In this document: one piece after another, positions 2,292 through 63,657 of the stretch
How the letters are laid out: each line of letters begins with the position of its first letter
How positions within the stretch are numbered: position 1 is the stretch's first letter
Origin: an uncultured Methanomassiliicoccales archaeon
GTDB lineage: Archaea; Thermoplasmatota; Thermoplasmata; Methanomassiliicoccales; Methanomethylophilaceae
Assembly (NCBI GenBank): GCA_949292635.1
Contig: CASEZY010000001.1
Coordinates: forward strand, 222,434 to 286,433
Direction of reading: 5' to 3'
DNA: 64,000 bases
The notes under the pieces: generated by a model
The model's database searches: none
Seen by the model: the letters and a program-made list of their open reading frames with translations, nothing else
Told to the model about the DNA's origin: nothing
Translations under genes and position numbers: made by a program

Positions 2292-3626
2292 ATGAACAGA
2301 GAAGAACTGACACCCCATGTGGAAGAACTGAAAAGGGTGCTTGGAGACAAGATCAGCGAAGAGGAGCTCCTCAAGGAACTGGACGCCTACCTTAACGTCT
2401 ACCATGTGGACATCATGTCCGCCAAGAGGGGCATCCTGAGGAAGCACGGCGACGTGGACCTGGACACAGGCTCCTTCGTCACCGGTGGCGCCGTCGTGAA
2501 GAAGATCGGCGAGCTCACCGGCAGCGAGATGAACGTGGACATCCTGGCGAAGGTGGTGTTCGCGGAGAAGAAGAACGTACAGATCAAAAACAGTGCCAGA
2601 ACCATAATATCCGGCATCCTTGGCGACGAAACCGGCACCGCATCCTTCACCGTGTGGAATGGCGAGGATATCGAGCTGGAGAAGGGCGCCGTCTACATGT
2701 TCAAGAACTGTTACACCAAGCTCTGGAACGACAAGGTCCAGATCAGCACAGGGAACAGGAGCACCATCAGCAGGGAGAACGTGGAGATCTCCACCCCCGA
2801 GAGGCAGATATCGTATTCGTCCTCGGTGGCCAAGGTCGCCGATCTGAAGGAAGGCATCGGCAACGTCACCATCACCGTGAAGATCGTCTCGGTGGAGTGC
2901 AGGAACATCATGGTGAAGGGAGAGCCCAGGGTGGTGTTCTCCGGCATCGCGGCGGACACCACCGGCAAGGTACAGTTCTCCGCATGGAAGGACTTCGAGC
3001 TCCAGGAAGGGGAGACCGTCTGCATAAAGAACGCGTACATCCGCGCCTGGAAGGGGATACCGCAGCTGAACTTCGGCGACAGGTCCGAAGTCAGCAGGGT
3101 GGACGACACCATCGGCGACATAGCCAGCGCCGTGGATTCCCGCAGGACCGTGGGTGAGATCGTACGTAACGGCGGAGGCATCGACATCACCGTCTCCGGC
3201 ACCGTGGTGGACGTCAGGGTCGGCAGCGGGCTGATCAAGAGGTGCCCTGTGTGCAACCGCTCCATCCTGGGGACGGAATGCATGAGCCACGGCACCGTGG
3301 AACCAGTCCAGGACATCAGACTCAAGGTGGTTATCGACGACGGCACCGGGGCACTGAGCGCCATCATCGGCAGGGAGCTCACCGAGAAGCTCACCGGAAT
3401 GACCCTGAAGATGGCGGTGGACCTGTCCAAGGCCAGAGGGGAGACCGAGGCGGTCACCAGGGCCATGGCCGACAGGGTGCTCATGCGCCGTGTCACCGTC
3501 ACCGGCAACGTCATGTCCGACGACTACGGACCGATGATGATCGTCAGCTCCGCGGATGACGACAAGATCGATGTGCCCGCCAGGGCGGCCGAACTCCTCA
3601 AGAAGGTAGAGGAGGCGATAATGTGA
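2292..3626 (+). CDS. rpa: Replication protein A (ssDNA-binding, multiple OB folds plus C4-type zinc finger)
   Basis: 444 aa with repeated OB-fold-like segments and CPVCNRS...C..H zinc-ribbon, typical of euryarchaeal RPA. Confidence 0.8.
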   Translation: MNREELTPHVEELKRVLGDKISEEELLKELDAYLNVYHVDIMSAKRGILRKHGDVDLDTGSFVTGGAVVKKIGELTGSEMNVDILAKVVFAEKKNVQIKNSARTIISGILGDETGTASFTVWNGEDIELEKGAVYMFKNCYTKLWNDKVQISTGNRSTISRENVEISTPERQISYSSSVAKVADLKEGIGNVTITVKIVSVECRNIMVKGEPRVVFSGIAADTTGKVQFSAWKDFELQEGETVCIKNAYIRAWKGIPQLNFGDRSEVSRVDDTIGDIASAVDSRRTVGEIVRNGGGIDITVSGTVVDVRVGSGLIKRCPVCNRSILGTECMSHGTVEPVQDIRLKVVIDDGTGALSAIIGRELTEKLTGMTLKMAVDLSKARGETEAVTRAMADRVLMRRVTVTGNVMSDDYGPMMIVSSADDDKIDVPARAAELLKKVEEAIM

Positions 3627-4531
3627 ACGCCAGGGAGACCGCATGGAGGATCTTCGCCGGGGAGCTGAACGCATCCTCGCTGGAGAAGAAGGGAGAGGAT
3701 GAGAAGTCCGTATCCTACGTGATCACCCCGCTGGGCACCATGGTCAACAGGGTGCTGGTCTGCGGCGTGCTGACCGAGAAAGAGAACATCGGCACGGACG
3801 ACGAGCCCATGTGGAAGGCCAGGGTGCAGGACGTCACCGGCTCCTACTTCCTCAACGTCGGAAGGTACCAGCCGGAGGCGGCGGCCGCCATGGCCAACCT
3901 GGACACCCCGTCCTTCGTGGCCGTGGTGGGTAAGGTGAGGACCTATTCCCCCGAAGAGGGAAGGGTCTACGTGTCCCTGCGTCCGGAGAAGATGATGTCC
4001 ATCGACGGCGACACCAGGAACATGTGGGTGCTGGATGCGGCCGAGAGCATGTGGGACCGTCTGCTGAAGCTGCGCAAGACCGTGAGCAACCCCGATGCGA
4101 ACGCCAACGCCCTGATAGGTATGGGTCTGACGGCACAGGAGGCCGAGGGCACCATACTGGCACATGAGCACTACGGCGATCCCGACTCCTCCCGCTACCT
4201 CTCGGTGCTGCAGTCGGCGCTGAGGATGCTGCTGCCCGACCGCACCATCGACCTGGGTCTTCCCGAGGAGGTCCCCGACGCCCCCGAAGAGATAGAGGTC
4301 GAGGGCGGCGACAACGACAGCGGGATGTCCGCGTTGGACAAGGAGGATGTGATCCTCAGACTGATCGAGGAGCTGGACGACATCCACAGCAAGGGCGCCC
4401 CCAGGGCGGAGATCGACCGCAGGGCGGCCATGGAGGGCATCTCCGAGGCGGAGGTGGAGGAGATATCCGATTCCCTCATGGACAAGGGTCTGATCTACGA
4501 ACCCAACCTGGGCTACCTCAGGAAGATTTGA
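3623..4531 (+). CDS. RPA-associated protein / RPA32-like subunit (OB fold plus acidic C-terminal winged-helix-like region)
   Basis: Overlaps the RPA stop (GTG start inside ATGTGA). OB-fold-like N-terminus and acidic C-terminal tail; sits where RPA-associated proteins sit in euryarchaea. Confidence 0.6.
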   Translation: MNARETAWRIFAGELNASSLEKKGEDEKSVSYVITPLGTMVNRVLVCGVLTEKENIGTDDEPMWKARVQDVTGSYFLNVGRYQPEAAAAMANLDTPSFVAVVGKVRTYSPEEGRVYVSLRPEKMMSIDGDTRNMWVLDAAESMWDRLLKLRKTVSNPDANANALIGMGLTAQEAEGTILAHEHYGDPDSSRYLSVLQSALRMLLPDRTIDLGLPEEVPDAPEEIEVEGGDNDSGMSALDKEDVILRLIEELDDIHSKGAPRAEIDRRAAMEGISEAEVEEISDSLMDKGLIYEPNLGYLRKI

Positions 4532-4575
4532 AAAAAACGATGACGGGGCCGGTCCGCCGGCCCCATCATTTTATT
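4531..4575. terminator. Bidirectional terminator hairpin between convergent genes
   Basis: Perfect stem ggggccgg-tccg-ccggcccc (4545-4564), flanked by A7 upstream and ttttatt downstream, giving oligo-T on both strands. Confidence 0.55.
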
Positions 4576-4580
4576 CTGTT

Positions 4581-5162
4581 TCAGCTGGCGAAGTAATCCC
4601 TGGACGTGTACACGCCGATGGTCACCAGCACGCCGATGATGACGCCGATGATCCCCTCGGTGAAGAACGCCAGGATGGAAGCGGCGGCAAGCAGTATCAC
4701 CGCGTAGGTGAAGTACGTGCGCTTGTAGCACAGATACACTGAAACGACGGCGGGGATGGCCACGGCGGCGGTGAGCCAGCCGGCTGTGGCGAGCTGGGAC
4801 ACGATCTGGTCGTGGGTTCCGCTGATGTTGTAGCCGAAGGTGGCCAACAGTTCCTGCAGGGTCATGCCCTGGTCGGCGGCGAACTGCTCCAGGATGTTCA
4901 CCATACTATCCGCGCTGAGCGCTATGCCGATACCTCCCAGGATGGCCACTACGCAGTACAGCACGGTCAGTATGAATGCGATGAGGAATACGCCGCCCAT
5001 GGACTGCTGCGACTTGTTGACATGGCCCCCGTATCCTCCGGCGGGAGAGGACCCCGGCATGGGTTCCGAATGGAGAGGCCTGCCGCAGCTGGGGCAGTAG
5101 GCGGAATCCTCCGTCAGCATCGCGCCGCAGGCGGGACAGAAGCCGTAGTTCTCGTCTGTCAT
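4581..5162 (-). CDS. Zinc-ribbon domain membrane protein (hypothetical)
   Basis: N-terminal CPACG...CPSCG zinc ribbon followed by about 4 hydrophobic helices. Confidence 0.6.
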   Translation of the reverse strand: MTDENYGFCPACGAMLTEDSAYCPSCGRPLHSEPMPGSSPAGGYGGHVNKSQQSMGGVFLIAFILTVLYCVVAILGGIGIALSADSMVNILEQFAADQGMTLQELLATFGYNISGTHDQIVSQLATAGWLTAAVAIPAVVSVYLCYKRTYFTYAVILLAAASILAFFTEGIIGVIIGVLVTIGVYTSRDYFAS

Positions 5163-32760: not shown

Positions 32761-32837
32761 GGGCTTGTAGCTCAGCTAGGTAGAGCGATGGACTCTTAAT
32801 CCATCGGCCAAGGGTTCGAATCCCCTCAAGCCCGCCA
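32761..32837 (+). tRNA. tRNA-Lys (anticodon CUU), CCA encoded
   Basis: Cloverleaf: acceptor gggcttg/caagccc, D arm gctc...gagc, anticodon stem atgga/tccat with loop ctCTTaa, T arm aagggTTCGAATCccct, discriminator g plus cca. Confidence 0.85.
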
Positions 32838-33325: not shown

Positions 33326-34496
33326 GGATGTCGCCCATCCGGGCGGCCACCCTCCCCTTCACCTCTGCGAAGGGGTCGTTGAACGCATAGCTCATGCCCT
33401 TGCCGTGCCCGTCCTTGCGTAGGATGCCGACACCCTCCAGTCCGTTCAGACGATTCCGCAGAGTCTGGTCGGAGACGGATGGGATCCATACTCTGGCATC
33501 CGCCAGGGTGAATGTCCCGTAGTCCTTGGCATTGTATGCAAGAGTGCGGGACACCTCGTCCATATCCTTAACCAGATCCTTCTGCGAGAACAGCTCGTTG
33601 GCCTCGGTGTACGATTGGAGGAGTGCCTCGGCGGTGTAGCAGACGAAGGGCGTGTAATCTCCCGTCTCGTCGGTATATGCCAGCAGGTCATAGTAGACGT
33701 TGTTGCGCTTCAGCATCTTCTCCTCGAACCTGCAAAGTGCGCAGTTCCCGAAACCTCCGGCCTGGAGCACCATCCTCATCAGCGTCCTGCCGGTCCTGCC
33801 ATTGCCGTCCAGGAAGGGATGGATGCTCTCGAACTCGTGGAAGAAGAGCGCGGCGGTACATACGGGATCGAAGGGCGACGACATGAGCCAGTCGAACAGA
33901 CTCTCGGACTCCTCCCGGACGTGGGCGGGAGGGCAGCAGATGAAGAGATCCTCACCTCCGGACGTCTGCACGGACACCTCCACGTCCCTCAGTTCGCCCG
34001 GTATCCCGCGGAAGCCCGTGCCTTCCATCAGCAATGTGTGGACCTTTTCCGCGGTCTTGAGGGTCGGCATGCGGCCGACGGGATTGGTCACGAACATGGG
34101 ATACAGGTGGTTGATGATCTCCTGGATGTTCCCCGGATTGGTCTCGTCATACCTTCCGGACGAGAAGCGCCCGGTGATCTTGGCCACATCCTCCTGCGAC
34201 AAGGGATTGCCCTCTATGCGGGTGGTCCAATGGACATTGGAAGCGTACGCATCCTCCGCCAGTTTGATGTAATCCCGGGAGGAGATGATGTATTGGTCCA
34301 GGTCGTAATCCCGGCGCCTGATCTCCGATACAAGGCCGCGATACCATGTGGGCAGGGCCGGATACGGCCGGAAGGGGACCTTGCGCTTGTGCCGGAGCGG
34401 CTGTTTCGTAGGCACGAAGGACTCGTAATCCATCATGTGCGGACCCACCGACTCCGGGATCGTAGATTGATATGCCATTTGATGACCCGTTATCAA
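33318..34496 (-). CDS. Fic/DOC-family protein (putative AMPylator/toxin) with C-terminal winged-helix domain
   Basis: Canonical Fic motif HPFLDGNGRTGR. Confidence 0.85.
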   Translation of the reverse strand: MITGHQMAYQSTIPESVGPHMMDYESFVPTKQPLRHKRKVPFRPYPALPTWYRGLVSEIRRRDYDLDQYIISSRDYIKLAEDAYASNVHWTTRIEGNPLSQEDVAKITGRFSSGRYDETNPGNIQEIINHLYPMFVTNPVGRMPTLKTAEKVHTLLMEGTGFRGIPGELRDVEVSVQTSGGEDLFICCPPAHVREESESLFDWLMSSPFDPVCTAALFFHEFESIHPFLDGNGRTGRTLMRMVLQAGGFGNCALCRFEEKMLKRNNVYYDLLAYTDETGDYTPFVCYTAEALLQSYTEANELFSQKDLVKDMDEVSRTLAYNAKDYGTFTLADARVWIPSVSDQTLRNRLNGLEGVGILRKDGHGKGMSYAFNDPFAEVKGRVAARMGDILS

Positions 34497-34647
34497 GAAA
34501 AATGATCCTGTACTTAAACACTCACTTTTCTTGATAATTTTTTATCATGAAAATTCATCAAGAGTATTAACAGTTGGATCGTAAACTCTCATTTTCGGTC
34601 GATTCTAACGAAATCTGATCGATGGAATAACTCGAATCTTTCGCCCA

Positions 34648-35946
34648 TCATTTCAGACTACTTTCGAACCCCCTCAATATGTTGGGGAAGTCCAGCATCG
34701 CCGGACACGGGATCCCTCCGAACAGCCCGTTCAAGTAACGGACGGCATTGTTGTTGGTACGCTGGGTCCTGGCTATGGACGCGAGTGACGAGACGGTCCT
34801 GTCGCCATCCAGATCACTGGACATGACGAACACCGATTTGGGGTCCGCATCGGACATGAGCGAGATATTGTGCGTGGTGATGATTAATTGTTCATCACGT
34901 TCCAAGCGAAGCTCCGAGATCATGTCGCAGATCAGCTTGACATGCACGCCCGAATCCATCTCATCTATCACCACCACTCTCCCGGACACATATGCCAGCA
35001 GAGCAGGGAGCATGGAGATCAGCCTTCTGATTCCGGAGGATTCCCTAGATGCAGGGACCTGCCTGACCGTGCCTGATATCCTCTTGTCGAACATCAGTTC
35101 GTAACGTATCCGCCCTCCCAGGTCCCTGCGGTCGTACCACGCACGTTCGAAATCGGGGGTTATGCGTCTGAAGAAACGGGACATCGCCCCTTCGTATGCA
35201 TCGAGGATATTCTCCGCATCCCTTGATATGGTGCCGGACATCAGACCCTGCAGTCCGCTGTGTCCGGCGCTGCCGGAGGGACATTCGATCCATATGCCCT
35301 CGATGTACGCGATCACCTTGCGCAGACCCTCCCTGACCGAGGCTTCCATGAATCCTTCGTTCTTGCGGACCAGTTCCCCGCGAACGATGGATAGGAGGGT
35401 GTGCCTGCCCCAATAGCGGTCGATCAGACCGCATATCTCCCCCTTGTACTCGGAAGAGAATATCGTGGGACCGAGCTCCGCATTTATGCTGGCGTTCTCC
35501 GAGGATATGGAGAAGTACCGTCAGCTGCGATCGTTGATCATGTAGTTGAGGGCCTCGTACACCACGAACCCCCGGGCATCCATGCTCAGTTCATACCTGG
35601 CGTCATGACCGTCCACGGACATCGTGACGGTGATTCTCGGACCGTCGTCGCTGCCAATCATCCTGACCTCCGAGCACAGTTCGGGCATGGAGGTCTCCTT
35701 CCGTTCACAGGGATCGAGGTAACATATGCCCTTGGCCTCATCAGCAAGTGGATTGATGGTATCGCTGGGAGAGAGCGTGAGCACGGAATCCCGAAGGAAG
35801 GCGAAGGACTCCGTCAGATTGGTCTTCCCTGCACCGTTCTCCCCGTAAACCAGGACGATGTTCTGCGGGGATCCCTTGGAGCCAGTTATGCGGAACTCCA
35901 AATCGTTGAACGATTTGAAACGTTGTAATCTAATGCTTTTAATCAT
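34648..35946 (-). pseudogene. AAA_21/AAA_15-type ATPase (abortive-infection-like) interrupted by one in-frame TGA
   Basis: N-terminal part (35521..35946) has Walker A GENGAGKTN and ends ...NYMINDRS-TGA. The same frame continues RYFSISSENAS... through Walker B VVVIDEMDSGVH and ITTHN to 34648. Both halves are needed for one ATPase fold. Confidence 0.7.
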
Positions 35947-36055
35947 ATTGATTAAAAATATTATACGTTTAATTAAACATTTTGATATGTTTTATATCAT
36001 TCTCATGATTAGTATGGCGGCATAATACCCCGCTTGATCATAACCATCCTGAGAA

Positions 36056-36814
36056 TCACTTCCCCAAGACCTTCTCTGCAGTATGTGCCAGGAACATGCC
36101 CCATCCGTCGCACTGCTTCAGCAGCGAGATGATTATGCCGGAGCTGAGCTTGGACTCCCCACCCTGGCGCTCCCCGAACTCGAACACCGTCTCCTCGATA
36201 TGGGTGTCCTTGGGGACGTACTTCATCAGGTCGAACAGTGCCTTGAAGCCCCGCATCTGGAAGTCCTGCCTGTGCTCTTGGATGACCTCTTTGCACATAT
36301 CCGTCCTGCCGCCGAACAGCCCGCTCATGATGTCCGAGGAGATCTGACGGTCGTGCATCCTGAGTGTGAATGCCGCAAGATAATGAGCGCCCCAGGAGCC
36401 CACCCATCTGGTGAACGAGGACAGGTTGCTGCGGTCCTTACGGACGCCGATGGACAGGTCCGCGCCTGCCTTCAGCTGAGCGAAGATATCCTTCAGCGCC
36501 GACGGCGGATGCTGGAAGTCGGAGTCCATGTTGATGAAATACTCGGTCTCCGTCAGCTCGATGCCCTCGAAGATGCTGGCCGAGAGGCCCCGATCCTCCG
36601 GGGCGCGGACCACCAGCCTCACCATCGGGTCGCCCTCGGCGATCGCGGAAACGATGCTCTGGGTCCCGTCCTTCGAGTTGTCGTCCATCACCAGCACCCT
36701 AAATCCCGGGTACATCGAACGGAGGGTCTCCACCATCCTTCCGATGTTGGCCTCCTCGTTGTAAGTTGGAAGTATGACGGTGCAGCCGTCCTCTCCGCTC
36801 ATCGGCCCCCCCAA
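36056..36814 (-). CDS. GT2 family glycosyltransferase (dolichyl-phosphate mannose/glucose synthase-like)
   Basis: ILPTYNEEANI and DDNSKDGT/DSD motifs; about 250 aa. Confidence 0.8.
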   Translation of the reverse strand: MGGPMSGEDGCTVILPTYNEEANIGRMVETLRSMYPGFRVLVMDDNSKDGTQSIVSAIAEGDPMVRLVVRAPEDRGLSASIFEGIELTETEYFINMDSDFQHPPSALKDIFAQLKAGADLSIGVRKDRSNLSSFTRWVGSWGAHYLAAFTLRMHDRQISSDIMSGLFGGRTDMCKEVIQEHRQDFQMRGFKALFDLMKYVPKDTHIEETVFEFGERQGGESKLSSGIIISLLKQCDGWGMFLAHTAEKVLGK

Positions 36815-37237: not shown

Positions 37238-38161
37238 ATGGAGAAATCAGAATTCATCTGGCTGGACGGCAAGCTCGTCAAATGGGAGGACGCCAAGGTC
37301 CATGTCCTCGCCCACGGCCTGAACTACGGGACCGGCGTCTTCGAGGGCATCCGCGTGTACGACACCCCCAAGGGAAAGGCCATCTTCAGGCTGAAGGACC
37401 ACGTCAAGAGACTGCTGGACGGCGTCAAGGTCATGGGATTCGACATGACAATCGGCGGGAAGGAGTACGGATACGACGAGGTCTTCGAGGCCATCAAGGA
37501 GACCGTCAGGGCCAACAAGAACGTGGACTACATCAAGCCCTGCGTCTTCCTCTGCGGAGAGGAGACCGGACTGAACCCCATCGGCGTTCCCACCAGCTTC
37601 GCCATCACCTCAGTGTACATGGGCAACTACCTGGGCAAGGACGCGGACAAGGGCGCCAAGCTCATCACCTCCACCTGGCACAGGCCGGACAACCTCTGCT
37701 CCCCCGCGGGTGCGAAGGTCAACGGTGCCTATGTGACTTCCTGCCTCGCCAAGAGGGAGGCCAAGCTCAGGGGAGCCGACGAGGCAGTCATGCTCAACGC
37801 CAACGGATACGTGGCCGAGTGCACCGGTGAGAACATCTTCATGTTCAAGCGCGGCAAGATCTACACCCCCCTGCCCAGCAACAGCATCCTGGAAGGTATC
37901 ACCAGGAACTCCATCATCCAGGTGGCCAGGGACATGGGCTACGAGGTCATCGAGACCGACATCAGCAGGACCGAGCTGCTCACCGCGGACGAGGTCTGGA
38001 TGACCGGCACCGCCGCGGAGATCGCACCGGTGACCATGATCGACGAGAGGGCAATCGGCTCAGGAAAGATCGGTCCCGTCGCCGCCGCGCTGAAGGAGAG
38101 ATTCCACGCCATCGCCGCGGGGAACGTCCCCGAGTACGCCGAGTGGAACGACTACATCTGA
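37238..38161 (+). CDS. ilvE: Branched-chain amino acid aminotransferase
   Basis: Fold-type IV PLP enzyme; start MEKSEFIWLDGKLV inside ORF 37142..38161; conserved catalytic-region motifs (LNYGTGVFEGIR...EVWMTGTAAEIAPV). Confidence 0.9.
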   Translation: MEKSEFIWLDGKLVKWEDAKVHVLAHGLNYGTGVFEGIRVYDTPKGKAIFRLKDHVKRLLDGVKVMGFDMTIGGKEYGYDEVFEAIKETVRANKNVDYIKPCVFLCGEETGLNPIGVPTSFAITSVYMGNYLGKDADKGAKLITSTWHRPDNLCSPAGAKVNGAYVTSCLAKREAKLRGADEAVMLNANGYVAECTGENIFMFKRGKIYTPLPSNSILEGITRNSIIQVARDMGYEVIETDISRTELLTADEVWMTGTAAEIAPVTMIDERAIGSGKIGPVAAALKERFHAIAAGNVPEYAEWNDYI

Positions 38162-42279: not shown

Positions 42280-43506
42280 CTACTCGACGATGCCGTATCC
42301 GATCAGTCTCCACTTGCTGGAGATCCTCCTGGATATGGCGACCCTCTGACCCTTGGCCACGCAGACCGGGATCTTCAGCATGACCTGCACGGAACCGGCC
42401 TTACCGCTCTTCACCACACCGATGGTGGTGGCGGTGCCGATGCTCAGCATCAGGGGCTCGTTGGACTTGATCTCGTCCACGCGGAGATCCGACGAGGAAC
42501 CGACCACACGGTCCAGTAGCACGGTCTTCATGGCGAAGTCGTTGACCACCTCCGGCAGGTTGCCGGGGATGCCCACCATCCTGCCGGTGAGACCGTCGGA
42601 CTTGGTGATGGACGGATCCAAAGAGGTACCGATGGAGATGAGGCCTCCGGGGCCCACCTCCTTCACGCTCTTGCCACCGGCCACCAGGGAGGTGACCTTG
42701 GTGAGGACCCTGTGCATCTTGCCGCTCTCGTCCCTGATGCCGGGGACCACTTCCACCTCGTCCCCGACCTTCAGCTTCCCCTGGATGAGGGAACCGCCGA
42801 GCACACCGCCCTTCAGGTCCTTGGGCTTGGTGCCGGGGGAGTTGATGTCGAAGGAACGGGCCACGTGCATGAGCGCGGGCGACTCGGTGTCGCGGACGGT
42901 GGTGGCGACGATGTGCTCCTCGATGGTCTCGATGAGCTTGTCGATGTTCACGCCGCTGTTGGCGGATATGGGGACAATGGGAGCGTCCTCCGCGATGGTG
43001 CCCTTGACGAACTCCTTGATCTGGCGGTAGTTCTCCACGGCCTGCTCGCGGGTGACGATGTCGATCTTGTTCTGGACGATGATGATCTTGTCGATGCCGA
43101 CGATGGACAGTGCCATCAGATGCTCCTTGGTCTGGGGCTGGGGGCACTTCTCATTGGCCGCCACCAGCAGGATGGCGCCGTCCATCAGGGCGGCACCGGA
43201 GAGCATGGTGGCCATCAGGGTCTCGTGTCCGGGGGCGTCCACGAAGGACACCGCCCTGAGGAACTCCGTGTCGGAGCCGCAGACGGAGCACTTGGGTGAG
43301 GTGCCGTAGGCGGCGGCACCCTCGCAGTTGGGGCATTTGTAGAATGCGACGTCGGCATAGCCGAGTCTGATGGAGATGCCCCTCTTGACCTCCTCGGAGT
43401 GCCTGTCGGCCCATTCTCCGCTGAGGGCCCTGGTGAGGGTGGTCTTGCCGTGGTCCACGTGGCCTATCATCCCGATGTTGATCTCGGGCTGTCTCGGCAC
43501 CTTCAT
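42280..43506 (-). CDS. eif2g: Translation initiation factor 2 subunit gamma
   Basis: GTPase G1 GHVDHGKTT, zinc knuckle CPNCEG...CSVCG, EF-Tu-like domains II/III. Confidence 0.9.
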
Positions 43507-48795: not shown

Positions 48796-50049
48796 ATGAT
48801 AGTTGACTTCACCATCGAGAACTTCGGTCCATTCAGAGACGAGACCGTACTGAGCATGCAGGCCACCGGTATGAAGGGGCTTCCTGGAAACATATCGGAA
48901 TCAAAATTCGCGAAAAACGGACTGCTCACATCAGCAATAGTGTTCGGAGCGAACGCTTCCGGAAAATCATACCTCACAAAGGCATTCTCAGCACTGAGGT
49001 ACATGGTGGCTGACACCCGTCACGACGAAACCCAATTCCCCTGGTATCAGCCATTCAGAATGTCCGAGAGGTGCCTGACGTTCCCAGTGCGCATTCGCAT
49101 AAAATTCGTTGAGAAGAGTGTACTGTATGACTATGCGATATCATATTCGGCAGACCGCATAGTCTACGAGCATCTCTACCACTACCCAAAAAACCGCCGT
49201 GCATGCGTATTCCTACGCACAGGCCCATTGACATTCGAACAGGCGAAAAAAAGCATTGCAGGCCTCACAAACGGATCGTCCGCATATCTTGCTGTGGCAT
49301 CCAAACTGAATGATGCCGTATGCAGCATCGTATCCAAATACATCCTTGAGAGAGTAATCTGTCTGGGTTCCAATCTCCTCCCATTGGTAGCTAGATCCTG
49401 CGTGTATCTATCGGAGAGCCAGGACAGGAAAAATATGGCAATGTCCGGACTGAAATACGCCGATTTCGGAATCACAGACTTCCAGTGGACAGAGGAGAGT
49501 GTCGATTCGTCCGAACTGGAGAGACTCATGCCTCCTGAGATGTACCGCGGCATATCAGATGCCGAGAGGCAGACCGTGAAGAGGATGGATATCCGTCTCA
49601 AGCATTCATTCAGAAGTTCGGATGACAGCGGACTTGAGGAGGTCCTCCCTCTGGAAATCGAGTCGTCAGGGACACAGAATATGTTCGGACTTCTAGGCCC
49701 TCTTACTGATGTGCTGAGCAACGGTGGCGTGCTGATCATCGATGAATTCGGCTCCACATTCCATCCCATGCTGTCAAGGTGGATTGTGTCGCAGTTCTCT
49801 GATCAAACAGGCGACATCAGAGCGCAACTCATAGCCAACTCCCATGACATGGAACTGATGGATACAAAGGAGGTACTCCGCAGGGATCAGATATGGTTCA
49901 CCGATAAGGACAGAGCCACTGGAGCCGCGGAGCTCTATGCCCTATCGGATTTCGACGGCATCAGGAAAAACGCAGATATCGCCAAAGCCTATCTGAATGG
50001 AAGGTATGATGCGATTCCGCACATCCTCTCGGGAAAAATGAAGCCATGA
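48796..50049 (+). CDS. AAA_21-family ATPase, AbiLi/RloA-like (defence ATPase)
   Basis: Walker A GANASGKSYLT, Walker B/D-loop VLIIDEFGSTFHP, C-terminal NSHD; 417 aa; visibly AT-richer than the flanks. Confidence 0.8.
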   Translation: MIVDFTIENFGPFRDETVLSMQATGMKGLPGNISESKFAKNGLLTSAIVFGANASGKSYLTKAFSALRYMVADTRHDETQFPWYQPFRMSERCLTFPVRIRIKFVEKSVLYDYAISYSADRIVYEHLYHYPKNRRACVFLRTGPLTFEQAKKSIAGLTNGSSAYLAVASKLNDAVCSIVSKYILERVICLGSNLLPLVARSCVYLSESQDRKNMAMSGLKYADFGITDFQWTEESVDSSELERLMPPEMYRGISDAERQTVKRMDIRLKHSFRSSDDSGLEEVLPLEIESSGTQNMFGLLGPLTDVLSNGGVLIIDEFGSTFHPMLSRWIVSQFSDQTGDIRAQLIANSHDMELMDTKEVLRRDQIWFTDKDRATGAAELYALSDFDGIRKNADIAKAYLNGRYDAIPHILSGKMKP

Positions 50050-50654
50050 TCGTCGAACCGAGAGACAGAAGACGGAAGAGAAGGAAACCCAAGAACACCG
50101 CGCTTATCGTCGGTGACGGGCGAACCGAACAGCTGTACTTCGAATCCCTCAACAAGAGGTATGGCAAAATCAGCATCATATCCCTCGGAACCAGGAAAAC
50201 CGGTATCGACCAAAGCATCAGGTTTGCAAGAAATGTTGCAAAACACAGACAGTTGAACACCAGTGATGGAGACCTAGTGGCAATCGTGATGGACATCGAC
50301 GGCAGATATTATGAGGAAGACATTGCCAGAATGTACAGGAAGTGCAAGGAGAAAGGATATTCTCTGTTCCTGTCTAACCCTTGCATCGAAATCTGGTTCC
50401 TGCTCCATTACGAAGGAGTTCGTTGCGAATGCACACAGCACGAAGCACTTCATATGCTTGAGGCCGCCAGCAAAATGAAGTATTCGAAATCGAAGTCTTT
50501 CGAATTCGATGATGTGATGCTGAGAGAGGCTATGAAACGTGCAGAAAAAATCCTTCCAACGGAAGAATGCTGCCCGTCTGAATGTCTGAAAAGGAACCCC
50601 AGCACGATGCTTCACGTGCTAGTAGGCAACCTGCTAAACCGCCCCGAGCAATGA
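50046..50654 (+). CDS. RloB-like protein (AbiLii-like, Toprim-related) partner of the AAA_21 ATPase
   Basis: RloB signature ALIVGDGRTEQLYFESL near the N-terminus; start overlaps the ATPase stop (ATGA); 202 aa. Confidence 0.75.
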   Translation: MIVEPRDRRRKRRKPKNTALIVGDGRTEQLYFESLNKRYGKISIISLGTRKTGIDQSIRFARNVAKHRQLNTSDGDLVAIVMDIDGRYYEEDIARMYRKCKEKGYSLFLSNPCIEIWFLLHYEGVRCECTQHEALHMLEAASKMKYSKSKSFEFDDVMLREAMKRAEKILPTEECCPSECLKRNPSTMLHVLVGNLLNRPEQ

Positions 50655-55781: not shown

Positions 55782-56630
55782 GTGATTAACGTGACGTCGC
55801 CATCCGAGGATGTAAACTCCGAACCGTCTGCAAAGAGGCACACTGTTCCTACTTTACAGACAATTCGGGAAATATACCAGTACCGCAACATCCTGTGGGC
55901 ACTGGTACGCAGGAACATCGTCGGAAAATACAAGAGCTCGTTCCTGGGATTCGCCTGGCACTTCATCACCCCGCTGTGTCTGATCGTCCTGTATTATGTA
56001 GTGTTCACAGGAATCAGAGCAAACCCGATAGAATCCTACTGGATATACCTTGGCTGTGGAATCTTTCCTTTCAGTTTCATGAATTCTAATCTGATATCTG
56101 GATCTGGGTGCATCTTGAATAATGGAGGGTACATCAGTAAGATGTACTTCCCACGTGAGATTGTCCCGCTGGCACAGGTGACGAGTTCGTTCATCATCAT
56201 GCTGTTCGGATATGTAGTGATCATGATTCTGACAATAGCATCAGGATTCACTCTCAACCCGATTGCCTTGCTTACGATTCCAGTGATGTTTGTCCTGAAC
56301 TACATCTTCGTACTTGGTATGGTGTTGCTTATGTCCTCGATAACCGTCTACGTCAAGGATATCCAGCATCTTCTGACATCAATGTCCATGGTGTTCTTCT
56401 TCACCACACCCATGTTCTATCTCGCCAGCGAGACCACCGGAATTCTTAGCAAATTAATATGGGTGAATCCGTTCACCTACTTCGTAGAAGCATACCACAG
56501 CATCGTTTACTTCGGCACGATGCCAAGTATTGAGATCACAGTAGCCTGCACAATACTAGCGGCTGTGTTCCTGGTGGTCGGTGCCATCGTGTTCAAACGT
56601 CTGAAGAGAGGTTTCGTGGAGAGGTTGTGA
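55782..56630 (+). CDS. ABC-2 type polysaccharide export permease (Wzm/KpsM/TagG-like)
   Basis: Six TM helices and a YRNILWALVRRNIVGKYKSSFLGFAWHFITPL N-terminal signature; apparent GTG start; AT-rich. Confidence 0.8.
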   Translation: MINVTSPSEDVNSEPSAKRHTVPTLQTIREIYQYRNILWALVRRNIVGKYKSSFLGFAWHFITPLCLIVLYYVVFTGIRANPIESYWIYLGCGIFPFSFMNSNLISGSGCILNNGGYISKMYFPREIVPLAQVTSSFIIMLFGYVVIMILTIASGFTLNPIALLTIPVMFVLNYIFVLGMVLLMSSITVYVKDIQHLLTSMSMVFFFTTPMFYLASETTGILSKLIWVNPFTYFVEAYHSIVYFGTMPSIEITVACTILAAVFLVVGAIVFKRLKRGFVERL

Positions 56631-58645
56631 TGAAGCCGGACAGCGCGATCGAACTGCATGACGTCAGCAAATCCTTCAGGATACAGATCAGGAACTCAGA
56701 TTCGGAGAAGCTGTTCTTGCCGAAGGCACATTCCGTCAACAAGGTGCTGGATGACGTGAGTCTGACTGTGAAGAAGGGTACCGTGATGGGGATCCTTGGA
56801 CGCAACGGCAGCGGGAAGAGCACCATCCTGAAGATCATCTCCAGGATCATGGAGCCGGACTCCGGTACTGTGGAGATTGGCGGGAAGCTCGCCAGCATAT
56901 TGGAACTGGGGATGGGGTTCCACCCGGATATGTCCGGCAGGGAGAACATCTACATCAAAGGCGAAATGTACGGGTTCTCCCGGAAGCAGATCGAGGAGAG
57001 GATTGACCAGATCATCGAATACTCTGGGATAGACAGGTACATCGACAATCCTGTGAAGACGTACTCCTCAGGAATGGTGGGCAGACTTGCGTTCGCCATT
57101 ATGGTGAATGTGGATGCCGATGTGTTGCTGGTTGACGAGATCCTCAGCGTGGGAGATGCCGCGTTCTCCGCCAAGGCCGCCGAACATTTCAAGAAGATGG
57201 CCAAGAGCGGGAAGACCGTGCTGTTCGTATCTCACAACATAAACTTCCTAGAACAGATCTGCTCGCGTGCCATTTGGATTGAGAACGGGAAGATCGTCGA
57301 GGACGGCCCCGCCAAGAAGGTGTGCTCGATCTACCGCAACCGTGTTTCCGAATCCTTCGACATAATATCTGATCTGGCACATTCCGGAGTGGCCGATGCC
57401 CAATATAAACTTGCCATGATGTACCACAACGGCACGGATGTGCTTCCGGACGAGGGTCTTAGCGCTTTGTGGATGAAAAGGGCTGCAGAGCAGGGGAACA
57501 CACTGGCACAAGTGCGGTATGCAGACATGCTGATGCAAACTGGCTCATTTTCTGATGCTGAAGATGCCATCAACTTCTACAAATCTGCGGCTAATGCCGG
57601 GAATGAAGAGGCCCGGATGAAAATTTCATCATTGTCAAGGCACGAAGGTCTGAATCAAGACCTAGAGGCCGTGAAAGACATCTTCAGACAGTTGGCAGAG
57701 AGGGAAGATCCACTGGACATGTACCGCTATGCAGACCTTCTGCTGAAGACCGCTTGGAGTGATGAAGATCGTGTCAAGGCGTTTGAATGGTTCGTGAAGG
57801 CATCGGACGCTGGAAATGCGGATGCTATGCATTCAGCTGCTATAATGCTGCGTGACGGGAAGGGCGTGGCCAAGGATATCGAAAAATGTGTCTACTATCT
57901 TGAAATGGCTGCGAAACTGGGTCTTCAGAGATCGCAAGTATTGCTTGGTGATCTTTACTACGAAGGTAAAATCCTAGAAAAAGATGATACCAAGGCCATT
58001 CATTGGTATGAAACGGCTGCGCTTACAGGCAACCCTCGCGCACAATACATGACCGCCATCATGTATAGGGACGGACTTGGTACGGACCAGAATGTAACCA
58101 AAGCTGAAGAATGGTTCACGACTTATGTCCATTCATCAGCTACACAGCATATGATCTGGGCCGGAGACGCACTCAGATACGTAGATTTGGAGACTAAGTA
58201 TAGCCCTACTGACCTTTATAAAATGGCCTCAAAATACCATAACCTCTATGGAGACCTCATCCTGGGCAATACCTACCACGACGGAATATACGAAGTTCGT
58301 AACGATGCGACGTCACAAATGTATTATGAAAAATCTGGGAGTCTATGGGGTACGTGGAGGACATCACTGGCAAGGGTACTGATGATCACAGAGGGCCTTA
58401 ATAATATTGCTAGGATTATTGAACTTTACGAGCAGTCGGGTGCTTGTGGAGACGGAGAGGCACTATATCGCCTATCTTTAATCTACAACAATGGTTTGGG
58501 TGTTCCCAGGGACGAATTAAAGGCCAAGTCATTGGCATTAAAAGCTGCAAGATATGGAAACATTTCAGCGTGCAGAGCTATTGTTAAAAATCTTAAGAAC
58601 ATCGACATGCCTGACATTCTAAAATCGTCTAACAAAGATGAATGA
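56627..58645 (+). CDS. ABC exporter ATP-binding protein (Wzt/KpsT/TagH-like) fused to a C-terminal domain of about 11 Sel1 repeats
   Basis: GRNGSGKST, LSGGM-like signature, LLVDEIL Walker B in the first about 240 aa; then repeated Sel1 units (AQYKLAMMYHNG, GNTLAQVRYADML, GNADAMHSAAIMLRDGKGVAKD, GNPRAQYMTAIMYRDGLGTDQN ...). Confidence 0.85.
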   Translation: MMKPDSAIELHDVSKSFRIQIRNSDSEKLFLPKAHSVNKVLDDVSLTVKKGTVMGILGRNGSGKSTILKIISRIMEPDSGTVEIGGKLASILELGMGFHPDMSGRENIYIKGEMYGFSRKQIEERIDQIIEYSGIDRYIDNPVKTYSSGMVGRLAFAIMVNVDADVLLVDEILSVGDAAFSAKAAEHFKKMAKSGKTVLFVSHNINFLEQICSRAIWIENGKIVEDGPAKKVCSIYRNRVSESFDIISDLAHSGVADAQYKLAMMYHNGTDVLPDEGLSALWMKRAAEQGNTLAQVRYADMLMQTGSFSDAEDAINFYKSAANAGNEEARMKISSLSRHEGLNQDLEAVKDIFRQLAEREDPLDMYRYADLLLKTAWSDEDRVKAFEWFVKASDAGNADAMHSAAIMLRDGKGVAKDIEKCVYYLEMAAKLGLQRSQVLLGDLYYEGKILEKDDTKAIHWYETAALTGNPRAQYMTAIMYRDGLGTDQNVTKAEEWFTTYVHSSATQHMIWAGDALRYVDLETKYSPTDLYKMASKYHNLYGDLILGNTYHDGIYEVRNDATSQMYYEKSGSLWGTWRTSLARVLMITEGLNNIARIIELYEQSGACGDGEALYRLSLIYNNGLGVPRDELKAKSLALKAARYGNISACRAIVKNLKNIDMPDILKSSNKDE

Positions 58646-58648
58646 AAA

Positions 58649-59458
58649 ATGCCGGACCAGGGGGAAAAGAGTATGGATAAGATGATATTGATTGCCGGAC
58701 CGTGTGTCATTGAATCCCAGCAATGTCTAGAAACGGTCGCCCCTCACATCGCAGACATCTGCGATGATCTAAACATCGACTATTTCTTTAAATCATCATT
58801 CGACAAAGCAAATCGCACATCAGTAAGTTCTTTTCGCGGACCCGGTATGGAAAAGGGCATCGAAATGCTTCAAAAAATCAAAGATGAATTCGGTGTGAAA
58901 ATAACCACAGATATACACGAGCCGAACCAGGCGGCCCCTGTAGCAAAGGTTGCAGATATGATTCAAATCCCAGCATTCCTCTGCAGGCAAACCGACCTTC
59001 TAATTGCTGCTGGCCAAACTAATCGCATCATCAATGTGAAAAAAGGCCAATTCATGGCACCGTGGGATATGAAAAACGTGATTGGTAAACTCGAATCCAC
59101 TGGAAACAAAAAAATTATGCTCTGTGAGCGTGGCACATCATTCGGGTATAATCGCCTTGTAGTAGATATGGCTGGGATATATGAGATGAAAAAACTAGGA
59201 TATCCCATAGTTTTCGATGCCACCCACTCTGTTCAGCAGCCTGGCGGAGGAAACGGGTTCACCACAGGTAACAGAGAATACATACCCACCCTCACCAGAG
59301 CTGCCATCGCAGCGGGAGCAGAACACTTATTCATGGAAGTTCACCCTGATCCTTCCAAAGCATTGTCTGATGGACCCAATTCTCTTGAACTCTCCGAGGT
59401 CCGCAACCTGTTAGAAAAAGTCGTAGAAATCAGAAATGTTATTGGTGACTCAGCATGA
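58649..59458 (+). CDS. kdsA: 3-deoxy-8-phosphooctulonate (Kdo-8-P) synthase
   Basis: LIAGPCVIES N-terminus, KSSFDKANRTS, and the C-terminal-region motif EVHPDP; about 265 aa DAHP/KDO8P synthase family. Confidence 0.85.
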   Translation: MPDQGEKSMDKMILIAGPCVIESQQCLETVAPHIADICDDLNIDYFFKSSFDKANRTSVSSFRGPGMEKGIEMLQKIKDEFGVKITTDIHEPNQAAPVAKVADMIQIPAFLCRQTDLLIAAGQTNRIINVKKGQFMAPWDMKNVIGKLESTGNKKIMLCERGTSFGYNRLVVDMAGIYEMKKLGYPIVFDATHSVQQPGGGNGFTTGNREYIPTLTRAAIAAGAEHLFMEVHPDPSKALSDGPNSLELSEVRNLLEKVVEIRNVIGDSA

Positions 59459-60426
59459 ACGACAACTATCTGGACTCCGCTCAATATGTTTTTGATAAGG
59501 AGATAGAGGGCTTACTTTCGCTCAAAAACAACCTCGGGGAGTCATTCAACAGGTTCGTAGACGAAATTGATTCTTGCAAAGGCCACATCATATTCATGGG
59601 TGTAGGAAAAAGCGGCCATATCTGCCAGAAAATAGTTGCTACAATGCAAAGCCTAGGCATAAAAACATTCTTCCTGCATCCGACGGAAAGTTTACACGGG
59701 GACCTCGGATCAATTTCCAAAGAGGACATTGTTATCGGCGTGAGTAATAGCGGCGAAACCTCTGAGCTCCTTGGAACAATACCTTCCATCAGGATAATAG
59801 GTGCCAGACTTTTTTGCATAGTTGGGAGGGAAAACTGCACACTCAGTAGAAGTTCTGAGATAACTCTGCTGATGCCCAACATGAAGGAAGTGTTTCTAGA
59901 CAACATGGTCCCAACTACATCCACTACTGCAACACTGGTATTGGGTGATGCTTTAGCAGTATGCATAGCTGAAAAACGCGGGTTTACTAAAAGTGAATTT
60001 GGAATCTATCATCCCAACGGGGCATTGGGGAAAAGACTTACGATTAAAGTCTCAGACATCATGTCTAAGGACATCCAAAACACAACGGTTCCATGCGGTT
60101 CAACCATAAGAGAAGCTGTTGTGACCATGTGTGGATCGTCCATGGGCGGAATATGCGTCGTCAAAGACGGTCAACTTCAAGGTGTATTCACAGACGGGGA
60201 TCTGCGCAGACATCTCAATAAGTACGGAGATGAGGCCCTCGAATATGTTATTGACGATGTGATGACCAAAAAATGTACGACCTTGGATTATGACACGCTG
60301 GCATACGATGCGATAGAACAGGTTGTTACCAAAAGTGCCGTATCGTTCTATCCCGTTCTAAAAGATGGGGAATATGCCGGCGCCATTAGAACGCTGGACT
60401 TTGTCCATTCAGGACTGATGAAATGA
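59455..60426 (+). CDS. kdsD: Arabinose-5-phosphate isomerase (SIS plus tandem CBS)
   Basis: SIS motif FMGVGKSGHI...GVSNSGET plus C-terminal CBS pair; 4-nt overlap with kdsA. Confidence 0.85.
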   Translation: MNDNYLDSAQYVFDKEIEGLLSLKNNLGESFNRFVDEIDSCKGHIIFMGVGKSGHICQKIVATMQSLGIKTFFLHPTESLHGDLGSISKEDIVIGVSNSGETSELLGTIPSIRIIGARLFCIVGRENCTLSRSSEITLLMPNMKEVFLDNMVPTTSTTATLVLGDALAVCIAEKRGFTKSEFGIYHPNGALGKRLTIKVSDIMSKDIQNTTVPCGSTIREAVVTMCGSSMGGICVVKDGQLQGVFTDGDLRRHLNKYGDEALEYVIDDVMTKKCTTLDYDTLAYDAIEQVVTKSAVSFYPVLKDGEYAGAIRTLDFVHSGLMK

Positions 60427-60896
60427 TCAAAAAACTGATTATGGATGTAGACGGCACAATGACTGATGGCAGAATCAACATAGCCCCATCAGGAGAGTTG
60501 TTCAAATCGTTCGATGTCAAGGACGGTTATGGAATAAAGATGCTCATTAACGCTGGAGTAGAACCAATAATAATCACGGGTAGACGCTCAGATATCGTAT
60601 CTCTGCGTGCGAAAGAACTGGAGATCTCAAGTGTATATCAAGGGATATCGGATAAAGCCGAATGCCTACAAAACATAATGGAAAAAGAAGCCTTATCTCC
60701 GGATACTGTGGCATACATAGGGGATGATATAAACGATTTGGAAGCTATGAAACTGGTAAGACACACATTTGCACCGGCGGACGCTTCAGAGGATGTGCTG
60801 AACTATGTCAATCAACGCCTAAACAGCACCGGTGGACACGGGGCGATAAGAGAGTGTGCAGAAGTGATTCTAAAAAAGAATCAGGAGACGGTATGA
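60423..60896 (+). CDS. kdsC: Kdo-8-phosphate phosphatase (HAD family)
   Basis: HAD motif I MDVDGTMTDG and GDDINDL; about 157 aa, typical KdsC size. Confidence 0.8.
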   Translation: MIKKLIMDVDGTMTDGRINIAPSGELFKSFDVKDGYGIKMLINAGVEPIIITGRRSDIVSLRAKELEISSVYQGISDKAECLQNIMEKEALSPDTVAYIGDDINDLEAMKLVRHTFAPADASEDVLNYVNQRLNSTGGHGAIRECAEVILKKNQETV

Positions 60897-61672
60897 TGAA
60901 GATAATTGGTGTGATTCCTTCAAGATACGCATCGTCCAGATTTCCTGGCAAACCGCTGTCAGACATTTGTGGAAAACCTATGGTTTGGTGGGTCTACAAC
61001 CAGGCAAAATGTGTGAAAGAGCTGGACGAAGTGATTGTTGCTACAGAGGACGAGCGTATCACGGACGTTTGTGAAAAGTATGGGATTCCATCAATTATGA
61101 CGTCTGATAAACACAAAAATGGCACAGAGCGCCTTGCCGAAGTAGCGGCCAAAATAGAGGCGGATCTGTACGTCACGATACAAGGCGATGAACCTCTCAC
61201 ACAACCTAGCGACATCTCCAAATTGATTCGTTTCGCTTTATCAACAGATGCGCCCTGTGCAACTATGAAAACCGCATACAGGAATCCTGTGGATGTCATC
61301 AACTCAACAACGCCAAAAGTTGTCTCTGATTTGGATGACAATATTTTATTATTTACGAGATCGCCAGTGCCATATCCTAAAGCAGATCTGGATTACATCA
61401 TCTGGAAACCTATTGGAATATACATTTTCAAAAGAGATATTTTGCTGAAGTACCCTCAATTAAGGATGGGGCCGCTGGAAAGAGCTGAAGAAATTGAACT
61501 TCTTCGCTTCATTGAAAATGGATACAAGATAAAGGTGATTGAAACCGAGTCAAGTACAATTGCAGTAGATACTGAGAAAGATCTCAAAAAAGTAATTAAT
61601 ATGGCCAAAAACCTCTGTGATGATGACCCAGAATCCTATTTCATACATAACTTTAACAGAGGTGTCTGCTAA
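60893..61672 (+). CDS. kdsB: 3-deoxy-manno-octulosonate cytidylyltransferase (CMP-Kdo synthetase)
   Basis: Start MMKIIGVIPSRYASSRFPGKPL, QGDEPL motif; overlaps the kdsC stop. Confidence 0.85.
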   Translation: MMKIIGVIPSRYASSRFPGKPLSDICGKPMVWWVYNQAKCVKELDEVIVATEDERITDVCEKYGIPSIMTSDKHKNGTERLAEVAAKIEADLYVTIQGDEPLTQPSDISKLIRFALSTDAPCATMKTAYRNPVDVINSTTPKVVSDLDDNILLFTRSPVPYPKADLDYIIWKPIGIYIFKRDILLKYPQLRMGPLERAEEIELLRFIENGYKIKVIETESSTIAVDTEKDLKKVINMAKNLCDDDPESYFIHNFNRGVC

Positions 61673-61977
61673 GATAATTGAGGACACTATTTGATAATTG
61701 CCGGACCCCGCTACACGGGACTCCACAATTATCCCCACTTTTTTCTCGAGAACACTGATCCACACAGTCGGAACCTCCGAGAACTAGCCGTAGTAGCCCA
61801 AATTGCCTCATTTGTAGGGTTGAAATTGGACATGGCGACCTTCACACTCATCCTTTTTACCTGAAACTTCGGATTGTGTAGGTTGCAAAGCCTGATTTCC
61901 GTTTTTGATTTATATATTGTATTTAAAGAGTTTAAAAAGCACAATCCTTTAATATGTAACCGTGCATATAGGTTACA

Positions 61978-63657
61978 ATGGGAAGCATATACTATGTCGA
62001 GCGGAACGGGCAGAAGTATGCCTACGAGAGCGTATCCAGACGTGTGCCGGGGAAGAAGAATCCGGTCACCGAAAAGACGTATCTCGGCAAGGTGGATCCA
62101 GAGACCGGCAAGATAATTCCCAAGGAATCCAAGAAGGTCCCGACAGAGGAACATGTCCGCAAGTATGGATGTGTGACGGTCCTCGACAGGATCCAGAACG
62201 ATCTGGGCATATTGGACGACCTCCGCGAATGCTTCCCGGATGTCGCGGAGAACATCATGGCCACGGCAATGGCCGTGGCCATCGACCCCACACCGTTCGA
62301 CGATGTCCATTTCACCGTGGATGAGAACGGATTGAAGGACAGGCTGCGGCTCCGCGGCAGCCTGTCCCCTCCCGTGCTGTCCGACCTGACCAAGGACCTC
62401 GGCCAGAGGTTCTCGGCAATGGACACCTTCTTCACACGTCGTGCCGAGAGGACGATGAAGGGTGGCACCTACGCGATCGACATAACATCCAATTCCACCT
62501 ATTCGGATATGGGCGGATATGCGGAATGGGGCTACAACCGCGACGGCGAGAACCTTCCCCAGACCGGGATCGTCCTCGTAACCGACGGTTCGGGCATACC
62601 GATCGCGTTCCAGATGCTGCCTGGATCGATCGCGGACTCGGCATCGTTGCAGAGTACTGTGGAATGGATGGGATCCATAGGCGTCGCAGGCAGACTGGTG
62701 GCGGACCGCGGGTTCGAGAACGCGGGGAACATGGCCGCGCTGCTGGACCGCGGGATACCATTCACCATCCCGTCCAACGCACGTGAGATGCCGATAAAGA
62801 AGCTCATGACGAAGGCGAAGAGGATCATGAAGGACTCGGACTCCATCCGCAGGCACGAAGGGAGGACGTACAGGGTGGCCGAGTTCGAGGTCGGCATCGC
62901 CGACCTCGAGAGCGGCCACCGCTACGTCACGAGATTGGACGCCAACGAGAAGGGTGCAGGATCCGAGAACGAGCTGTTCGAAACATCCCGCAAGATCAAG
63001 GCGTTCGTCGTCCATGATTCCCGCAAGGCGGCCGATGACATGGATTCCCTGATGTCGGCCATCGAAAGGGCCGAACTCGAACTGGAGGGCACGGTCAGGA
63101 AGGATCCGGCCAAGGAATTCAACAAACTGCCGGCGTTCGTCCGTTCCCATCTGGATTGGACGGTGGATGAGGATGGTGCGATGCACATCGAGAGGCTCCA
63201 GAACTCGTTCTCGTTCGATTCGAACAGGGCAGGGATGTTCATCATGTTCGCCTCGATGGACACGGACTGGGAGACGATGATGTCGTCATACGACACAAGG
63301 GACTGGGTCGAGAAGGCCTTCGACGTCTACAAGACGGACACGGACGGGCCCCGGTCTAGGACCGGGGACCCCGACCGTGCCCGTGCGAGGTTCTTCATCA
63401 GGATGCTGGCACTGATCATGCGCATCACGATTCAGAACAGACTGAGGGATCACGAGAGGGAGATACTGGCGTCGAAGAGGGAGAGGGACGACGTCTGCGG
63501 ACTGTCTGTCAACTCCGTGATGAGGACCCTCGGGACGCTGATGGTGATCGTGAGTCCGGGCTATGTGAGGCTCACGCCACCCTCCAAGACGGTGATGGAG
63601 ATCTTCTCCCTGTTCGGGCTCGAAGAGCCCGTGGCGGGGAGGATCGCCTTACCATGA
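61978..63657 (+). mobile_element. IS1634-family transposase gene (DDE)
   Basis: N-terminal YYVERNGQKYAYESVSRR motif and VADRGFENAGN DDE region typical of IS1634/ISH-like transposases; 559 aa; native-like GC. Terminal inverted repeats not confidently identified. Confidence 0.75.

Follow-up and report, generated by a model that had tools for sequence, protein, structure and literature searches.

The 64,000-nucleotide stretch of genomic DNA considered here (the window) belongs to an uncultured Methanomassiliicoccales archaeon of the family Methanomethylophilaceae (assembly GCA_949292635.1, contig CASEZY010000001.1, positions 222,434 to 286,433). On its minus strand lies a gene for an ATP-binding cassette (ABC) ATPase of the defence type, the reading frame of which is interrupted by a single in-frame TGA. 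Comparison of the sequence with its homologues makes it likely that a horizontally acquired ATPase gene, present as an orphan, has recently become a unitary pseudogene at this locus.

Translation of the minus strand from 35946 to 34648 gives a frame of 433 codons that opens with an ATG at 35944-35946, closes with a TGA at 34648-34650 and contains one internal stop, the TGA at codon 142, which reads 'tca' on the plus strand at 35521-35523. The peptide preceding this codon ends in ...EALNYMINDRS, and the unshifted frame then reads RYFSISSENASINAELGPT... and continues through Walker B and the ITTHN motif. Once the stop is read through, the motifs GENGAGKT (residues 35-42), YWGRH (178-182), ESSG (302-305), VVVIDEMD (324-331) and TTHN (357-360) are found in a single protein (the read-through ATPase), with Walker A, a signature-like motif, Walker B (hhhhDE) and the H-loop all present. 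As the gene stands, Walker A is parted from Walker B by the TGA, and the single uninterrupted polypeptide expected of an AAA_21/AAA_15 ATPase is not encoded. The listing of open reading frames (ORFs) contains no ATG, GTG or TTG start within codons 143-199, and public assemblies list separate proteins of 141 and 233 amino acids (aa) because the first start past the TGA is the ATG at 35349. Codons 143-199, having no start, would therefore be missing from any fragment product.

Both parts belong to a recognizable family. The read-through ATPase matches the Pfam models AAA_21 (PF13304; 69.9 bits, E=5e-19, cut-off 27) and AAA_15 (PF13175; 32.5 bits, cut-off 32.1), with additional SMC_N and AAA_23 matches at the N terminus, and its top match among the PADLOC defence profiles is AbiLi (PDLC02335; E=1.6e-38, 131 bits, profile positions 49-286 of 326). 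A set of 28 full-length homologues of 423-470 aa, sharing 25-38% identity, covers 96-100% of the query and aligns without a gap at the TGA. The homologue alignment and the profile matches together indicate that this is not a chance open frame and that both "halves" belong to a single gene; what public assemblies list as two "genes", of 141 and 233 aa, would accordingly be the halves of a dead one. In these respects the preliminary description of the locus was borne out: translation confirmed a single TGA at 35521-35523 and a frame running on unshifted, as far as 34648, through the Walker B/ITTHN half, the ungapped homologues confirmed a nonsense codon instead of a frameshift, and the Pfam match confirmed the assignment to AAA_21-like ATPases. 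On its profile matches, the protein is a member of the AbiLi-like branch of the AAA_15/AAA_21 ABC ATPases and a broken additional representative of a known kind of defence ATPase; it is placed as a sister branch of AbiLi and not as its orthologue.

The closest homologues are Thermoplasmata sequences with 37-38% identity and no in-frame stops. Searches of GTDB genomes yielded 80 homologous loci, from gut Methanomassiliicoccales, many Clostridia and Bacilli, Brachyspira and others, the family being represented in Acholeplasma-like genomes as well as in Bacilli. It is also present on approximately 10 IMG/VR viral contigs. The closest homologue of all (38% identity) resides in a Thermoplasmata metagenome-assembled genome (JAUNXZ010000087.1, loci L010 and L012 at 927-2330 and 3329-4684), where another AbiLi-like ATPase (467 aa) in the same orientation lies 1 kb upstream of it, with one opposite-strand ORF between them.

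The state of the coding sequence bears on the age of the lesion. All 21 positions that are invariant in the family are intact in the read-through ATPase, 5 of 47 highly conserved columns deviate (family range 0-9), and the score of 415 bits against the family hidden Markov model (HMM) lies within the family range of 391-565 and equals that of the nearest archaeal relatives. Inactivation appears to have been recent, since all three measures are within the family norm. Relative to its full-length homologues, the gene carries a premature stop that is present in three assemblies, which is the mark of a unitary pseudogene; no further stops or frameshifts have accumulated, consistent with a very recent event. 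Decay also recurs elsewhere in the family, where two ATPase copies (L022 and L082) are interrupted by stops located elsewhere in the gene and also show a Walker B E>G substitution, and a third (L112) is frameshifted.

The reality of the TGA is crucial to this interpretation. Three assemblies yield an identical product of 141 aa: a Logan contig from run ERR10610642, which is 100% identical to the window across 14,785 bp, TGA included; an ENA k87 contig (ERZ17292905) of 3,241 bp, which differs from the window by one mismatch at 37270, outside the ATPase gene; and a 286-kb NCBI contig. Given the single-nucleotide polymorphism (SNP) at 37270, the ENA contig is no copy of the same consensus. A sequencing or assembly error, in which the true codon would be a sense codon such as GGA and the gene an intact ATPase of 432 aa, would require just one wrong base in a gene that otherwise looks intact. 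Nonetheless, such an error is very unlikely, considering that the TGA recurs in separately built assemblies, one of them distinguished by its SNP, and that the site (AGC-TGA-CGG) is neither a homopolymer nor a repeat. No intact allele was found among some 15 billion public proteins, and both fragments are singletons in 90%-identity clusters. When the 290 residues past the TGA were searched exhaustively with HMMER against 1.84 billion cluster representatives, the only match above 50% identity was the gene's own 233-aa fragment, with the next at 43%; an exact-pattern scan of GTDB genomes and JGI metagenomes for the TGA flanks with any codon between them gave no match.

Other readings accept the TGA as genuine and give it a different meaning. 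An alignment of 103 family members shows Gly opposite the TGA in 55 sequences, Thr in 17, Ala in 15, Val in 6, Ser in 4, Ile in 3 and Gln, Cys and Lys in one each. This abundance of Gly favours a change from GGA to TGA, which is probably the mutation that took place, and disfavours selenocysteine, a residue that normally aligns with Cys in homologues. Programmed recoding, whereby UGA would be decoded as selenocysteine or read through by a near-cognate tRNA to give the full-length ATPase at a low and regulated level, would account for the 290 codons past the stop, over which the frame remains open, fully conserved and free of any further lesion. It would also fit the UGA-C context, since UGA followed by C is a leaky termination context in bacteria and eukaryotes. 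However, a column with Gly in 55 and Cys in one of 103 members is unlike those of selenoprotein families, and the stops and frameshifts of other family members lie at different positions, so that no recoding site is conserved. The search for a selenocysteine insertion sequence (SECIS) that the preliminary description had proposed was carried out: at gathering thresholds Rfam returned nothing but a tRNA-Lys, which is the only tRNA in the window, and around the gene at E<=10 nothing relevant and no SECIS, although Rfam's detection of archaeal SECIS elements was left unchecked. The RNA past the UGA folds no better than shuffled sequences (z=-0.87), and the 3' region is unremarkable (z=-1.8). The host, moreover, is a member of the Methanomethylophilaceae, as seen from its aIF2-gamma (42280-43506, minus strand), to which named Candidatus Methanomethylophilaceae sequences match at 86% identity. 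This group of archaea decodes UAG as pyrrolysine, and no selenocysteine system is known in its order or family. TGA terminates 17 of the 20 called genes on the 14.8-kb Logan contig and 39 of the 55 long non-overlapping ORFs of the window; as the main terminator, it excludes a reassigned code. Recoding is thus an extremely unlikely explanation, and there is an equally slim chance that the UGA is read through at low efficiency, the context being leaky and Gly the ancestral residue, to give traces of a full-length sensor ATPase. This might then act in trans with the AbiLii/RloB nuclease of the resident pair, the gene of which is 14 kb distant. Were that the case, the UGA would let an archaeon throttle a costly defence gene at the level of translation.

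It has also to be considered whether the two fragments could be functional as such, with the 141-aa Walker A and 233-aa Walker B proteins both being made and reassembling into an active ATPase. Gene callers predict both ORFs, and a weak AAGGA motif is found 3 nt upstream of the ATG at 35349. Against this, the 57 startless codons after the TGA hold the invariant G180 and the nearly invariant W179, which would be lost, and no family member conserves a split at this site: of the short matches that might have been natural split genes, L112 proved to be frameshifted and L113 to be truncated at a contig end. A split gene is therefore very improbable. Least credible is the proposal that the gene originated in an organism with genetic code 25 or 4, where UGA stands for Gly or Trp and this TGA would be a sense codon. 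The prevalence of Gly in the aligned column and the occurrence of the family in Bacilli and Acholeplasma-like genomes speak for it, but a single TGA in 432 codons, a GC content of 55% with a third-position value (GC3) of 0.72, unlike that of low-GC alternative-code lineages, and closest homologues from Thermoplasmata that have no in-frame stops all speak against it. The preliminary description had placed recent pseudogenisation ahead of sequencing error and had considered recoding less likely, an order upheld by the genuine TGA with its identical product in three assemblies, by the 21 intact invariant positions and family-range HMM score, and by the role of TGA as main stop, the Gly instead of Cys in homologues and the lack of a SECIS match.

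The insertion site shows the gene to be specific to this lineage. In three related contigs (L003-L005) with 97-98% nucleotide identity to the window, 21 unrelated bp (GGACAGACTTTACAAACACTT) take the place of the ATPase between the stop codon of a GT2 glycosyltransferase gene and the upstream region of a Fic gene. The same GT2-Fic adjacency without the ATPase occurs in four contigs of a sister lineage (L108-L111), the aIF2-gamma of which is 96% identical. With seven related contigs without it, the ATPase is therefore carried on a lineage-specific single-gene cassette. The comparison with related strains that the preliminary description had recommended was thereby possible for the locus, although the gene itself is absent from these strains and its single-gene insertion had been invisible to that description. 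The cassette has a GC content of 0.525, compared with 0.579 for the window, and the ATPase ORF a GC content of 0.554; its GC3 of 0.716, against 0.81-0.90 in neighbouring host genes, points to a foreign, horizontally acquired element and agrees with the earlier remark that the gene is AT-richer than its neighbours. The flanks had likewise been described as AT-rich spacers. This holds for their composition (GC 0.284 at 35947-36055 on the 5' side and 0.331 at 34497-34647), but the 3' spacer is composite, with 34564-34647 belonging to the cassette and 34479-34563 to the native Fic upstream region.

At the cassette ends, no terminal inverted repeats, target-site duplication or transposon-like ends were detected. 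Integration linked to a tRNA was considered and rejected, as between the tRNA-Lys at 32761-32837 and the cassette there are genes that the empty-site strains possess as well. Upstream of the ATPase, TTTAATTAAA at 35968-35977, 22-31 nt before the ATG, is by its resemblance to the archaeal consensus a possible TATA box, as would suit a leaderless or short-leader mRNA. Just before the Fic gene, on its upstream side, there is an inverted repeat of 16 nt (TTATCAAGAAAAATGA / TCACTTTTCTTGATAA, 94% complementary, 34490-34537); it is kept in strains without the cassette and is a candidate Fic operator.

A further aspect of the locus is what the ATPase lacks beside it. In 60 of the 80 GTDB genome loci, a homologous ORF of approximately 195 aa overlaps or abuts the stop codon of the ATPase, while an HMM of this partner, run on all six translated frames of the window, gave a best E-value of 2.2, and no partner was found. 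The preliminary description was supported as to pseudogenisation but had missed this absence of a gene that usually follows on the 3' side. The partner family comprises more than 1,100 sequence clusters, all annotated as "hypothetical", and has no match in Pfam, NCBIfam or PADLOC, including none to AbiLii or RloB. Strand 1 is followed by an invariant H-G-x-x-E and strand 3 by a D-x-D(D), and the protein looks like a small Toprim-type nuclease. In an hhalign comparison of the partner profile with the RloB of the window, HGKSE was paired with the RloB motif GRTE, at a probability of 0.2, which is not significant. Five genomes (L011, L024, L039, L041 and L059) have the partner gene broken up into two ORFs, and in L011 an extra partner-like domain lies within an upstream ORF of 367 aa. 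The ATPase and partner pair is common to gut Firmicutes, their prophages and Methanomassiliicoccales, and the undescribed partner family is of more interest than the interrupted ATPase itself.

Taken together, these observations would fit the following sequence of events. A Methanomethylophilaceae strain would have gained a 1.49-kb single-gene cassette between its glycosyltransferase and Fic genes. A complete ATPase and partner would be expected to work as an AbiL/PARIS/OLD-like system, with an ATPase that detects infection and by which the nuclease effector is controlled or activated. A change from GGA (Gly) to TGA at codon 142 would then have stopped translation after 141 residues, leaving a product with Walker A but with no signature motif, Walker B or H-loop, in which ATP hydrolysis should be impossible; a re-initiated product of 233 aa may also be made, and would lack both Walker A and the YWG+H segment (within residues 143-199). 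With neither a partner nor an intact ATPase, the locus would be non-functional and would not yet have gathered further lesions. Since the effector gene is missing and the ATPase is cut after residue 141, the locus is most likely dead. Several points weigh against this conclusion. A second lesion is absent and constraint is not measurably relaxed, which leaves inactivity to rest on one codon, and no close orthologue exists from which a ratio of nonsynonymous to synonymous substitutions (dN/dS) could be derived. The three assemblies bearing the TGA may come from related samples of one study, and the leaky UGA-C context leaves room for some read-through product. In addition, 20 of the 80 loci have no partner (four of them at a contig end), among them L010/L012, the locus of the closest homologue, where no partner gene was detectable, and partner-less copies may have a life of their own. 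If the locus is indeed a pseudogene, it constitutes one more case of defence genes that are gained as fragments and quickly lost in gut archaea.

Table 1. Parts of the interrupted ATPase gene, its cassette and the resident AbiL pair (positions in the window).
Feature	Position	Strand	Evidence or remarks
N-terminal lobe, codons 1-141	35524..35946	-	Walker A GENGAGKT at 35821-35844; separate 141-aa protein in public gene calls
In-frame TGA, codon 142	35521..35523	-	Context AGC-TGA-CGG; aligned family residue mostly Gly
Codons 143-199	35350..35520	-	Still homologous to the family; conserved YWGRH at 35401-35415
C-terminal part, 233-aa ORF	34648..35349	-	ESSG at 35032-35043; Walker B VVVIDEMD at 34954-34977; H-loop TTHN at 34867-34878
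Lineage-specific cassette of 1,492 bp, ATPase gene only	34564..36055	.	Homology with L003-L005 (blastn) ends at 36056 (GT2 stop codon) and resumes at 34563
AT-rich (28% GC) ATPase upstream region, 109 bp	35947..36055	-	Sequence and GC content
Cassette 3' end past the ATPase stop, 84 nt	34564..34647	-	Room for a hairpin, too short for a partner gene of about 195 aa
Resident AbiLi	48796-50049	+	417 aa; PADLOC E=3e-80, 268 bits; 21 members in 90% cluster
Resident AbiLii/RloB	50046-50654	+	202 aa; Pfam RloB E=5e-26; overlapped by AbiLi

Additional features have been noted in the window (for the coordinates of the ATPase locus and of the resident AbiL genes, see Table 1). The resident AbiL pair is intact and canonical, and is located in a low-GC islet (GC3 approximately 0.59); it is found beside the L7Ae ribosomal gene cluster in L108-L110 and is absent from L111. 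On the plus strand, 55782-63657 forms a low-GC block (41-50%) encoding an ABC-2 permease, an ABC ATPase with five Sel1 repeats, and KdsA-like (DAHP_synth_1), KdsD/KpsF-like (SIS and CBS domains), KdsC-like (HAD) and KdsB-like (CTP_transf_3) proteins, followed by a DDE transposase. From its gene content, this block looks like a horizontally acquired cluster for the synthesis and export of a 3-deoxy-D-manno-octulosonic acid (Kdo) or capsule-type sugar, which is unusual in an archaeon. The aIF2-gamma of several relatives is called as a protein of 542-567 aa with an N-terminal ribosomal S6e domain, these products being fused calls over the S6e stop codon. They may reflect the handling of stop codons in archaea that use pyrrolysine, or differences between gene callers.

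The combination of an AAA_15/21 ABC ATPase with a Toprim nuclease characterizes a group of defence systems comprising OLD, Gabija, PARIS, AbiL and MADS3-4, in which infection is probably sensed by the ATPase, with the nuclease as effector (PMC11464382). The family of the interrupted ATPase is in keeping with this pattern. The preliminary description had referred to the ATPase as toxic, a term that is not supported, as toxicity in related systems resides in the nuclease and the ATPase acts as sensor. In profile searches, the closest solved structures are those of Septu PtuA and the retron Ec78/Ec83 systems (9e8z, E=1e-10; 8ee4, E=6e-10), and both NCBIfam and PADLOC give matches to PtuA. However, the match spans just some 60 residues around Walker B, and the known ATPases pair with HNH nucleases or retrons, neither of which is present here. 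Similarity to PARIS and OLD-like systems does not extend beyond the two Walker regions, A and B. AriA models align with just some 80 residues around the C-terminal motifs, no AriB or DUF4435 gene adjoins the ATPase, and the partner of approximately 195 aa has no Pfam match to DUF4435 or Toprim_Old. AbiL presents differences too: the ATPase is only 24% identical to the canonical AbiLi of the same window and scores 131 bits as compared to 268, the cassette is devoid of an AbiLii/RloB-like gene and extends only 84 nt past the stop of an ATPase that is itself interrupted, and the usual partner of the family matches neither AbiLii nor RloB. It is nonetheless AbiL that the ATPase resembles as an AAA_21 ABC ATPase of similar length with AbiLi as its best match, and its family mostly precedes a second gene of about 200 aa in an overlapping operon. 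The ATPase and its usual partner can thus be regarded as a candidate for an undescribed defence module of the AbiL/PARIS-like kind, and as a candidate case of defence-gene transfer from bacteria to archaea.
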